Source: a virus (taxonomy: Duplodnaviria; Heunggongvirae; Uroviricota; Caudoviricetes). From it: a stretch of DNA of 64,000 nucleotides. Positions 3,001-5,838 of this stretch are shown here, piece after piece. A program made the position numbers. Numbering within the stretch: the stretch's first letter is position 1; every line of letters starts with the position of its first letter. Location of the stretch: IMG/VR virus record IMGVR_UViG_637000265_000001; one strand, 5' to 3'.

Positions 3001-5838
3001 TTAAGACAGTGGCCCCAATCGTCCAGACTTGAAAGGGGCCAAGGGGGGAGAGGCACCGACCTTTGTCTATTAGATACCTACAGAGATTTTTGTGAGATTT
3101 TTTTAATACAAGGTCATAACCTACCGCCACTAGCCCCCACCGACCGCAAAGTGAAGACCTGTAAGCACCAGAGCAATAGCTATTGCGGGCATACTGCTGA
3201 TTGTTATTATCTATCACTCCCTGTAGAGCATCTGGCAGACCAAGTGGACACAGAGGACGAGCTCAAACAACTCCTGTAAGCTCATGGATGTACTCCTTAT
3301 GTTCACTCAGGGTTTATAGTTACTCTGGGGGTAGTAAACCGAATAACATGTATCAACGGGAAAGAGGCGTCTTTCTCAACGTCAAACTCACCTGCTTTCA
3401 CCTTAACGGAACCAGTAGCCAACACATCGACCACACTGATTAACTCAAGGTCATACCCAGCAGTGTTACTATTTCGGGTCACTTTGACATCTACCGTCTT
3501 AGCGTCTTTAGTTGACCTGAAAGAGATAGAAGCGAACCGCTTAGGCAGGAGATAGATACCTGTATCATCGCCCGCATAGCTGCATACAGTGCAGCCCAAT
3601 AGCTCACTAATATCCTCATGACCTGCGCGTTGAGCGGCTCGGTCCAAGATTGCCTCAAGTCTCTCAGGGACCAATACAGCGTAATCGCTCAGTGTATTTC
3701 CCAACTCGACCGGAAGATTCAACGCTAATGTATCCAGAAGATCTTCAGCTTGATCAGACGGTTTACCACTTAGTGGGGCTGCCTCAATGATTTGAAGGTC
3801 TGGCGTATCTTTCAGGACATCGACCACAGCGGCGAACATCTGGCGGCAGTATTGAACCTGCATATCACCTACAGTCTGGATTAATGCCCCCTCGGTCCAA
3901 CCGCCCATCATATCGAAGTCAGATACATGAGTAGTAGCAGAACACAGGATGCCCGTCTTATTGGTCTCAGGGTTCAACACTGGGGTGACAGTTACGCTTG
4001 CCCCTTTGATGGCTGTGGTAGACGGAGCATCCTTAGCTGGATTAAACGCGCCATTATGCTTAAAGCGGACGGTGCGATTCTGGAGAGCCTGACGGCGAAT
4101 AGGCGTAGGGTCAGTGCCGTATGGGCGAAACTCACAAGGGAAGACATTCTCCATTACAGCAGTGCGGAAGTCTCCATCATTGAAGGTCTCATCCAAAGAG
4201 TCCTCCAGCGCCTGAACAAAATCATGTGAATCATTCCCGAAGGCCATCGGACGGCCTGAGCGGTCCGTAAAGCCTACGTTGAGAACTTGGGCGTCTTGAC
4301 CATTGGTCATCTGAACATAGTCAGTGCGTGAGATGTCAGTGCCCCATATAGACCCCTTAATGATTTGACCGTCTTTATCTCGCTGAGGCTGACGCAGAGA
4401 AGCCAGTGAGGATGCTTTGTTAATTTGATTTGTAATAGACACGATGAATATCTCCTTATGGTATGAATGCACTACGTAAAAAGTAACTGGTGACACCATT
4501 GGTCTTATCTCAGAATCCAAGCAGCGCCACCGAAAGTTATCAGTTACAGCCCGAAAGCGGCCCCTTTATTGCCGAAGCGTTTAATCAATGCTTCCTCTCG
4601 GGCTTTACGTTCAGCGACCGCCTTAGCAATCTCTTCTGGTGTAGCATGAATAGCAGCCATACGTTCTTGATGTGCCTTAGCTTCTTTACGTCGGCGTTCA
4701 GCCTCTTGGCGCTCCTGTGCGTTGCTTTGAGCCCACCAGCGGGAATACTTGCCGTAATCACCTGCATCAAGACCAGCGGCGTGAATATCGTTAAGAATAC
4801 GATTTGAGTTCGCCATGTCAGAGCCTGTACTGTTCAGCATGGTTGTAACGACAATTTCGGTGAAATACTTAGTGGATAGCTCCTGACCGAATACCAGTAC
4901 AGTTTCTTTGTCAGCGCTCAGTGCGATATCCAGTTTGCGATAAGAAATAGACATGTTTGTTTCTCCTTTGAAAAGATGTTTTAAAAGGATTAAACTCATC
5001 GGTCTTCCATAGGTATTCCTACGGCGTCTCCCCGTATCTTGGTCAGTTCAAAAGGTGGTGCTAGCTGTGCTAGTGGGTTAATTACATGAAATCTCTTGGG
5101 GTCAGCCCTGCGTCAACCGCCATGAGACAGAGGGCAGCTTTAGAGTAATACGGGCGGTTTTCCTTGGCAGGCAGACCCAGAGTAGCTATCAGTGCCTTGG
5201 TGGGTACCACCATCAGGCGTAACGCCTTACGGCCTTCTGGTGTCCTTGGGTCAATCTTGATTGTGTTATTAGTCATGAATTACCTCCCCTCCAGCTTTGC
5301 TACTGCCTGTATGTGTTGCTGTTTAGCAGCGTCGCTTCCATGAACCGCTATGACCTTTCTGTGCATCTTGAGTACGTTTTCAGGTCGGCTGAAGAACTCC
5401 AGCCCCTTAGCGTTAAACCGAATGTTTATACCGTTTGGGTTGAATCGATGGTCAGTAGGTTTGATAATTCGAAAGTACTCCACATAGTTTGGATTGACTG
5501 ACCACTCGCCACTGAAAGGATGTACTCGGAACAGCTTGCGCTCTTTCTTAAGGATGGTCATCAGTTTCTGAGCGGGTAGACCATTGGCCTTGCAGTAATC
5601 GCCCCAAGTCACGCTGAAGTGGCACACTGAATTTGGCCACCTGAACAGAGGTGATATGCTCACCTCAGAACAACACAGGTGCTCCAATGAAAAAAAGAAA
5701 TTTTAGCGCAGAGTTTAAACGCGAATCCGCTCAACTGGTCGTTGACCAGAAATACACGGTGGCAGATGCCGCCAAAGCTATGGATGTTGGCCTTTCCACA
5801 ATGACAAGATGGGTCAAACAACTGCGTGATGAGCGTCA

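Follow-up and report, generated by a model that had tools for sequence, protein, structure and literature searches.

A truncated island in a Shigella flexneri prophage tRNA gene and its intact relatives: an apparent family of capsid-encoding mini-islands with T7-group promoters

The 64,000-nucleotide (nt) stretch of viral DNA analysed here (the window; IMG/VR virus record IMGVR_UViG_637000265_000001, Caudoviricetes) contains, between a phage-21-type lysis cassette and a copy of the insertion sequence (IS) IS911, a block of four open reading frames (ORFs), which encode the end of a Rha/ANT-type regulator, a small protein, a DUF6971 protein and a protein with a predicted capsid-like fold (Table 1). 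An earlier note on this DNA had described four co-directional frames of 111 or more, 64, 136 and 379 amino acids (aa), lying upstream of the lysis genes in the interval between the late antiterminator gene Q and the holin gene S and bounded distally by IS911. This description is borne out: all four frames are found on the minus strand, a P21-type holin gene lies downstream, comparison with phage PhiR47_1 places the block in the Q-to-S interval, and IS911 adjoins the regulator fragment. The same note took the block to stand in place of Q and the nin genes and regarded its original context as lost. Neither view can be kept, as the block is a foreign insertion with an attachment-site (att) junction at 2840-2862 and no part of the phage, and its context can be recovered from intact copies elsewhere. 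It is almost certainly the attR-proximal 2.75 kb of an integrative mini-island of about 5.9 kb. This remnant appears to expose a new and widespread family of T7-polymerase-driven, capsid-encoding mini-islands, and the best explanation overall, which we hold to be fairly probable, is that it derives from a minimal capsid-encoding family of satellites of the Autographiviridae.

The reading as an insertion is carried by the junction. In the junction alignment, recombination between island and phage DNA falls at 2861/2862: the island sequence reaches ...GATACC, identical to the distal end of islands in E. coli, and from TCGATTCCCGCTGCCCGCTCCA onward the window is identical to the 3' end of the PhiR47_1 tRNA-Gly gene and the DNA down to the holin gene. 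In PhiR47_1, S is preceded by Q, two small hypothetical genes and the genes for tRNA-Met, -Lys, -Thr and -Gly, and over the stretch that begins at the tRNA-Gly 3' end and takes in S, R and Rz the window has 96% DNA identity to this phage. The phage tRNA-Gly has the anticodon UCC as against CCC in glyU, with 20 of the 3'-terminal 23 nt common to both, and the E. coli islands terminate in the corresponding copy of the glyU 3' end. Because of the junction alignment and these near-identical tRNA 3' ends, we regard the block as the attR side of an element integrated into a look-alike of its usual target. The attR core has a single match in the window, beyond chance expectation; no second att core, tRNA or integrase homologue was found there, and tRNA scans of the block and of the whole window gave no complete gene. 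By megablast, positions 2500-2861 match lambdoid phages at 99.7% ('holin plus tRNA-Gly'), and positions 2839-5614 match only two of 5,426 complete E. coli genomes, at 93%; in both, the block lies outside any prophage, in a small island that follows a chromosomal tRNA-Gly gene and carries a 544-aa integrase. That the four genes are native lambdoid genes at the Q/nin position, a late regulator or a moron, would agree with their location upstream of and co-directional with S-R-Rz, but this is already contradicted and hardly conceivable: the att junction marks a foreign insertion, a search of 50,697 phage genomes did not find the block, whose only occurrences in complete E. coli genomes are the two in glyU islands, and its proteins lack similarity to Q, for which a real gene is present at 58692-59315 of the window. 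In searches of the four proteins against Pfam, PHROGs, NCBIfam and PADLOC, none proved to be a Q or Nin family member, as the earlier note had also judged, and the only matches were DUF6971 and, for the regulator fragment, weak ones to ANT/KilAC; the late regulator of a new type which that note had considered finds no support.

Table 1 Features of the island remnant and its surroundings, in window coordinates
Feature	Position	Strand	Remarks
Phage-21-type lysis cassette	636..2548	-	context only; downstream of the tRNA-Gly target gene
attR core, 3' 22 nt of phage-borne tRNA-Gly(UCC)	2840..2861	-	
Non-coding right arm of the element, capsid-like stop codon to attR	2862..3302	-	
Gene for 379-aa capsid-like protein, predicted HK97 fold	3303..4442	-	GTG start; orphan sequence family
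Gene for 136-aa DUF6971 protein	4544..4954	-	PF22318, E 1.8e-43
Conserved 64-nt leader motif, 5' of the DUF6971 gene	4989..5052	-	two nested helices
64-aa ORF	5082..5276	-	homologues of 62-71 aa across the element family
Rha/ANT-type regulator gene, 3' fragment (Bro-N network)	5280..5614	-	111 codons, 5' part cut by IS911
IS911	5615..6864	+	1250 bp; inverted repeats located

Intact elements are bounded by 18-bp direct repeats, TTCCCTTCGCCCGCTCCA, which correspond to the 3' end of tRNA-Gly(CCC), the normal site in Salmonella, E. coli, Klebsiella, Pectobacterium and Serratia, and they measure 5.86-5.88 kb in Salmonella, 6.09 kb in E. coli, 6.4-6.5 kb in Klebsiella and 6.29 kb in Pectobacterium. 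Their order is tRNA-Gly(CCC), a tyrosine integrase of 535-544 aa, a non-coding stretch of about 1 kb (in some elements a DUF4145 gene and non-coding DNA instead), a regulator of Rha/Bro-N type, an ORF of 62-71 aa, DUF6971, a capsid-like protein of 373-398 aa and the second att site. The DUF6971 protein of the Salmonella copy is 100% and its capsid-like protein 99% identical to the window proteins, and the latter, of 373 aa, is recorded as 'MULTISPECIES [Salmonella]' on at least 1000 contigs. In E. coli and Yersinia, members of a second sub-family, about 12 kb long, are inserted between pntA and pntB (no pnt-type relative occurs in the complete E. coli RefSeq genomes), and in some 30 Pseudomonas species the same integrase family, at 30-35% identity, accompanies a DUF6971-like and a capsid-like gene. 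Most enterobacterial and Pseudomonas loci that extend far enough have this integrase family 3-5 kb upstream of the capsid-like gene. Pfam and PHROG annotation revealed no portal, terminase, tail or replication genes in the elements, and in none of them an AlpA-type activator, primase/replicase, protease, adaptor or small terminase. The intact relatives are, in short, mobile units much smaller than a phage, with an integrase and att sites and without a full virion set, as satellites are. In E. coli 21AR0133 (locus L002 of our set, 4838-15019), a third 18-bp att repeat follows 10 kb past the element, and the DNA so enclosed is a second island, which has its own 650-aa integrase; the islands form a tandem array at glyU. 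The DUF4145 gene of some elements (L008 6831-7463; L004 2170-2811; L073 5508-6143) lies between the integrase and the promoter region, in a variable slot, perhaps one for accessory or defence cargo.

The intact 239-aa Salmonella homologue of the regulator matches the anti-repressor family phrog_10324 (E 1.1e-49) and Pfam Phage_pRha, and RefSeq names the E. coli homologue a 'Rha family transcriptional regulator'. Homologues of the 64-aa ORF occupy the same position in the E. coli, Salmonella, Klebsiella and Pectobacterium elements (tblastn), and the protein itself has no match in Pfam, PHROGs or the PDB. The right arm is 94% identical to that of the Salmonella element and 82% to that of the E. 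coli element, and its last ~120 nt are 82-85% conserved out to Klebsiella and Pectobacterium; in Salmonella it contains a 22-bp motif in tandem repeat. This region is probably the attP arm carrying integrase-binding sites. A candidate terminator hairpin 3' of the capsid-like gene does not exceed shuffled sequence in stability (z -0.76), scans of the block for sigma-70 promoters and terminators stayed at background level, and Rfam gave no match in the block and only glyU in the intact Salmonella element.

The gene for the 379-aa protein has the strong Shine-Dalgarno sequence and GTG start that had been remarked on before (AAGGAG at 4457-4452, 9 nt ahead of the GTG at 4442), and this start corresponds in the alignment to the ATG with which the E. 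coli homologue begins. A model computed with AlphaFold from 32 homologues (predicted local distance difference test, pLDDT, 70.9; predicted template modelling score, pTM, 0.66) displays an HK97 fold, with A and P domains, spine helix and E-loop. The best 50 matches of the model in a Foldseek search of the PDB are all capsid proteins or encapsulins, structural matches to 7rwz were obtained, and the matches in BFVD are mostly phage capsid or head proteins. On the strength of the model, it is very likely that the protein has the HK97 fold. In sequence it stands apart: no curated capsid family in Pfam, PHROG or NCBIfam matches the window protein or 16 relatives, tblastn found no match in the 50,697 phage genomes, hhalign against a T3-like capsid protein indicated no similarity (probability 0.1), a profile search of PDB sequences found nothing, and an exhaustive profile search of 1.84 billion proteins returned only 59 clusters, none of which connects it with a known family of capsids. 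In one distant member of the family, the C-terminus shows a weak match, below the threshold, to an Ig-like domain, which many virion capsid proteins have there. The earlier note had proposed, among other options, a divergent scaffold plus capsid-like pair, and had named as evidence for a routine phage protein both confident capsid homology and a standard gene order in complete phages. The capsid-fold homology is confident and the guess of a pair has held, with the HK97 fold given by the model and the scaffold role of DUF6971 a proposal; the block is absent from the phage genomes and never in standard phage order, and the framing as a replacement of Q has fallen. The C-terminus of the capsid-like protein in the window (3303-3330, minus strand) reads ...RFTTPRVTINPE, and the Salmonella and E. 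coli forms end in ...RFTAPE; judged from the translations, the difference fits a one-base insertion or deletion near the stop codon in the Shigella remnant.

In every locus examined, the DUF6971 gene lies directly upstream of the capsid-like gene. The 136-aa protein of the window is 100% identical over 136 residues to chain A of PDB entry 5EUR, an 'Uncharacterized protein', and literature searches found no publication on DUF6971 or 5EUR. Its C-terminal half is rich in Lys, Arg and Glu, as the earlier note had observed of the upstream partner, and the protein has a strongly conserved C-terminal motif, RFGxKG..AAFG, of which F134 and G135 are invariant. In a single-sequence AF2 model of low confidence (pLDDT 64), the N-terminus is a small beta unit and the rest consists of long charged helices. 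Gene order, size, composition, the C-terminal tail and this low-confidence model together suggest that DUF6971 may be a scaffolding protein which docks into the capsid protein. Upstream of the gene, the glyU-type elements share a leader of 64-71 nt, in which an outer helix (TTGAACT/AGTTCAA) encloses an inner hairpin (CCGTAGG/CCTATGG), the two being set apart by large internal loops with repeated GACCGA. In a trimmed alignment of only seven distinct sequences, 92.7% of cells are paired as against 21-43% in slid controls, with two compensatory pairs and several one-sided changes from G-U to G-C, which is suggestive of a conserved RNA structure. The leader matches no Rfam family, and its shape of two helices and internal loops recalls the ribonuclease III processing sites of T7.

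Three independent lines of evidence, namely promoters, an AT-rich array and virion genes, tie the family to T7-like phages, the first two from a region that the remnant lacks. In the intact family, one to four T7-group promoters and an AT-rich array lie between the integrase gene and the regulator gene (of Rha, Bro-N or KilA-N type), with the promoters on the sense strand of the non-coding stretch. Salmonella elements have one or two exact copies of the 23-nt T7 class III consensus, TAATACGACTCACTATAGGGAGA; E. coli elements have two exact 23/23 T7 promoters; and Klebsiella elements have one exact T7 promoter with K11-type promoters on its flanks, one of which is the exact K11 consensus in K. 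pneumoniae ATCC 13883. Exact promoters stand, for instance, at 8132-8154 in L013, at 19053-19075 and 19172-19194 in L001 and at 7526-7548 and 7593-7615 in L022. Variants with one to three mismatches occur in the Yersinia, Serratia, Pantoea and pnt-type E. coli elements, and the sites in Pectobacterium are weaker, with four mismatches to T3. Over both strands of the 1.35 Mb of fetched loci, all matches with up to three mismatches lie inside elements at that position and none in the flanking chromosome or the window, and shuffled sequences lead one to expect zero. The Pseudomonas elements have sites of the TAAAAACCCTCACTATGGC type, with zero to four mismatches, on the sense strand between the integrase and capsid-like genes and nowhere else in 658 kb; we take these to be similar to the promoters of gh-1, a T7-like phage of Pseudomonas. 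Behind the promoters comes an AT-rich array of short repeats (31-33% GC). The primary replication origin of T7 likewise consists of tandem T7 promoters and then an AT-rich segment, and an origin mimic of this kind would account for the absence of replication protein genes from the elements; here the sites lie in bacterial chromosomal islands and not in a phage, and the origin role is a prediction. A regulatory link to a helper phage, as known satellites have, is thus present in the form of a promoter signal, and the sequence makes it likely, at a high level of confidence, that the element is wired to a T7-group RNA polymerase. The window copy is without a T7-group promoter even at six mismatches. 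It contains AATTAACCC (5083-5075, minus strand), the upstream half of the T3 promoter consensus, overlapping the stop codon of the 64-aa ORF, and the E. coli locus L001 has a similar AATTAACC; we rejected this half-site as a promoter, since the initiation half is absent and it is probably not functional.

Genes of T7-like virions point in the same direction. Pnt-type elements of Yersinia and E. coli have, 3' of the capsid-like gene, a gene of 1362-1381 aa, and its 1365-aa Yersinia copy is a full-length homologue of the T7-group internal virion protein D/gp16 (phrog_342, E 1.9e-272), with 44% identity over 100% of its length to proteins of Teetrevirus and other T7-like phages. One large gene of an E. 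coli pnt-type element carries an SLT domain; the phrog_342 score applies to the Yersinia copy only. In Pseudomonas taiwanensis, a gene for a gp14-like internal virion protein (phrog_805, E 4.4e-57) follows the capsid-like gene. These internal virion protein genes lie at L006 11503-15600, L075 10107-14252 and L035 10906-11493. An HNH endonuclease gene was also seen beside the gp16-like genes of the elements inserted at pntAB.

Promoters and virion genes of this kind would also be found in a heavily decayed temperate prophage of T7-like type, of which these genes are left after deletions, and integrase-bearing T7-like phages do exist. Such an origin is nonetheless very improbable, as a compact 6-kb layout with intact ORFs and precise att repeats recurs across Salmonella, E. 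coli, Klebsiella, Pectobacterium, Serratia and about 30 Pseudomonas species, unlike the outcome of random decay, as the capsid-like protein has no sequence similarity to the capsids of T7-like or any other sequenced phages, and as no remnants of RNA polymerase, DNA polymerase, portal or terminase genes were seen. We consider it just as improbable that the 379-aa protein forms an encapsulin-like nanocompartment, carried as island cargo and loaded with DUF6971 by way of the conserved C-terminal peptide. The DUF6971 motif is compatible with a shell-binding peptide and does not discriminate between this and the other readings. Encapsulins would be expected to show Linocin_M18 or another encapsulin Pfam domain and an enzymatic cargo, and the capsid-like protein has no such domain and DUF6971 none that resembles an enzyme; the operon of the integrase-linked element lies behind T7-group promoters, its regulators are of phage type, and in two lineages the shell gene is followed by genes for internal virion proteins of T7-like type.

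We propose that the intact elements are satellites of T7-like phages. Infection of the cell by such a phage would be the first step, upon which the phage RNA polymerase would fire the island promoters, which are present in the DNA, and the regulator, scaffold-like and capsid-like genes would be transcribed. The promoters and the AT-rich array may then act as a T7-type replication origin, and DUF6971 and the capsid-like protein, to judge from fold and gene order, would build a small shell. With the portal, terminase and tail of the helper, this shell might package the island and spread it at the helper's cost. That the element is a true satellite which packages itself is, in our estimation, an evenly balanced proposition that leans slightly towards the affirmative. 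Several points weigh against the proposal. The ends of the ~6-kb contigs show no circular overlap; the relatives in IMG/VR sit in larger contigs of prophage type, with no virome-derived copies identified; neither a packaging signal nor a small terminase was identified; excision, replication, packaging and transfer are predictions from the DNA sequence; and the scaffold role of DUF6971 draws on gene order, composition and a model of low confidence (pLDDT 64). The window copy, without phage-type promoter and integrase, gives no sign of remaining function.

The main rival is a purely defensive role for the same element, in which the T7-group polymerase would induce poison or decoy subunits that wreck procapsid or core assembly, and the island would remain unpackaged. 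Expression from phage-polymerase promoters would start only on infection, gp14- and gp16-like homologues of helper structural proteins are plausible dominant-negative subunits, some elements carry the DUF4145 gene in the variable slot beside the integrase, and no packaging function was found in the elements, all of which such a role would account for. PADLOC, however, gives no defence model for the four proteins of the window, a conserved integrase and precise att sites in many genera speak for horizontal movement as a unit, and the origin-like arrangement of promoters and AT-rich array would serve no evident purpose if the element acted in defence only. Known satellites can combine interference with transfer, so that both roles may coexist. 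On balance, we regard a purely defensive element as rather unlikely, and the other alternatives, the encapsulin, decayed-prophage and native lambdoid readings, as fitting much less well than the defensive role does.

As satellites, the elements resemble several known systems in part. The capsid-forming PICIs (cf-PICIs, for example EcCI2) are about 15 kb in size and have a full head module of portal, protease, adaptors and small terminase together with a replication module, whereas the present family has only a capsid-like gene and a putative scaffold gene. The Ccm protein of SaPIbov5 (PMC8569155) is a satellite-encoded homologue of the capsid protein that redirects the capsid size of the helper. 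The two cases share a capsid-fold protein in a satellite without its own portal or terminase, and the matches to 7rwz are in line with this likeness; Ccm is homologous in sequence to the helper capsid, in contrast to the 379-aa protein, which has no detectable similarity to phage capsids. [quoted passage not shown] PICMIs lie beside fis, have their own excision and replication proteins and lack capsid genes (PMC10803314); the elements described here target tRNA-Gly or pntAB, have no replication protein, and carry a capsid- and scaffold-like pair behind promoters for phage RNA polymerases. Helper-embedded PICIs (HE-PICIs) are, like the element of the window in its original form, integrase-bearing islands co-oriented in a lambdoid late region, with regulators of the Bro-N network (PMC10111431), but they insert into protein-coding late genes of the phage that serves as their helper and carry modules for AlpA and replication, whereas the target here is a phage tRNA-Gly gene and the partner, according to the promoters, is a T7-like phage and not the lambdoid host phage.

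The Salmonella elements are probably the island known as Salmonella pathogenicity island 15 (SPI-15), which in S. Typhi is 6.5 kb long, lies near glyU and has five hypothetical ORFs of unknown function (PMC10373206, PMC7143636). Our Salmonella loci L013-L016 are 5.86-5.88 kb long and directly follow tRNA-Gly(CCC), and their five ORFs encode the integrase, Rha, the small ORF product, DUF6971 and the 373-aa protein; the window copy differs in being truncated and placed inside a prophage tRNA gene of Shigella. The identification draws on site, size and ORF number as given in these reviews, which weighs against leaning on it heavily, and neither the reviews nor the literature searches gave a function, a capsid fold or T7 promoters for SPI-15. 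We put forward tentatively, as a claim that falls a little short of probable, that SPI-15-type islands are the smallest known mobile elements with their own HK97 capsid and scaffold, a new class of satellites of virulent T7-like phages that the helper's RNA polymerase would switch on, that would mimic the T7 origin and form miniature capsids, and that would be common in Salmonella Typhi, E. coli, Klebsiella, plant pathogens and Pseudomonas. According to a 2025 preprint, an isolated HK97-fold mobile element of such a size class has not been described, and T7 is not mentioned in a 2024 review of mobilisable elements. Literature on satellites with internal virion proteins or with Autographiviridae helpers yielded no description of the family, nor was any other prior description found in a search that left T7 promoters in bacterial chromosomes outside its scope.

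For the remnant itself, two events can be proposed. A tyrosine integrase would have inserted the island into the 3' end of the tRNA-Gly(UCC) gene of a lambdoid prophage, between Q and the holin gene, an off-target event for an element whose usual site is the chromosomal tRNA-Gly(CCC) gene, glyU. As the element points in the same direction as S-R-Rz, its insertion would at first have separated pR' from the lysis genes by 6 kb. The target resembles the tRNA gene of the normal site, the embedding is confined to one lineage, and the promoters point to T7-like and not lambdoid phages, all of which favours an accident. A later rearrangement mediated by IS911 would then have cost the island its left half, that is, the tRNA-proximal att site, the integrase, the phage-type promoters, the repeat array and the 5' part, the greater portion, of the regulator gene. 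IS911 is flanked by CGC on one side and GCC on the other, without a target-site duplication, and because these triplets differ we take it to have been involved in a rearrangement and not a simple insertion. Beyond it (window 5615-7914) lies a P22-like large terminase gene, an ORF of 354 aa apparently without its 5' part, followed by portal, scaffold and coat genes, which indicates that the rearrangement fused two unrelated prophage fragments; no partner copy of IS911 was found in the window, where the other IS, at ~62.4 kb, is not IS911. Shigella flexneri 5 str. 8401 (CP000266.1) is the genome that the window sequence matches, and the prophage-embedded copy was seen only in S. flexneri, with the same IS911 cut in every complete genome read, which points to a single old event. 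With the 3' end of the regulator gene, the small ORF, the leader, the DUF6971 and capsid-like genes and the attR arm retained, and the integrase, promoters and repeat array gone, the window copy is best seen as an immobile fossil between IS elements.

The window thus holds a dead island fragment that arrived in a prophage tRNA gene by off-target integration and was then cut by IS911, and its interest lies in the family to which it leads. If the proposal is correct and the identity with SPI-15 holds, a "pathogenicity island" of S. Typhi and its Gram-negative relatives are parasites of T7-like phages. The lower size limit of satellites that encode capsids would fall to about 6 kb, their helpers would come to include virulent T7-like phages, and the islands could affect the outcome of phage therapy, as T7-like phages are widely used in therapy and typing, with Klebsiella, Salmonella Typhi, E. 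coli and Pseudomonas among the targets. Exact T7, K11 and gh-1 promoters in bacterial chromosomes would be infection sensors and a simple signature by which to find similar elements. The pair of an orphan HK97 capsid and its scaffold would also offer a system for the study of minimal shells, with an unpublished crystal structure, PDB 5EUR, already available for one partner.

Downstream of the remnant, the lysis cassette consists of a holin gene at 2548..2333 (P21-type, PF04971, E 5.5e-35), an endolysin gene (phage lysozyme) at 1633..1100 and Rz at 1118..636. Between holin and endolysin lies a 195-aa ORF (2286..1699, minus strand) that belongs to phrog_1085, a family of unknown function, and in other S. 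flexneri genomes with the remnant this slot is taken by a 104-aa gene of DUF1327/YdfR type. At the far end of the window (~53600-62400, plus strand), a second lambdoid segment with early-right and late genes shares 95% identity with phages E212 and mEpX2; besides the Q homologue mentioned above it contains lysis genes of its own, and it ends at the non-IS911 element at ~62.4 kb.

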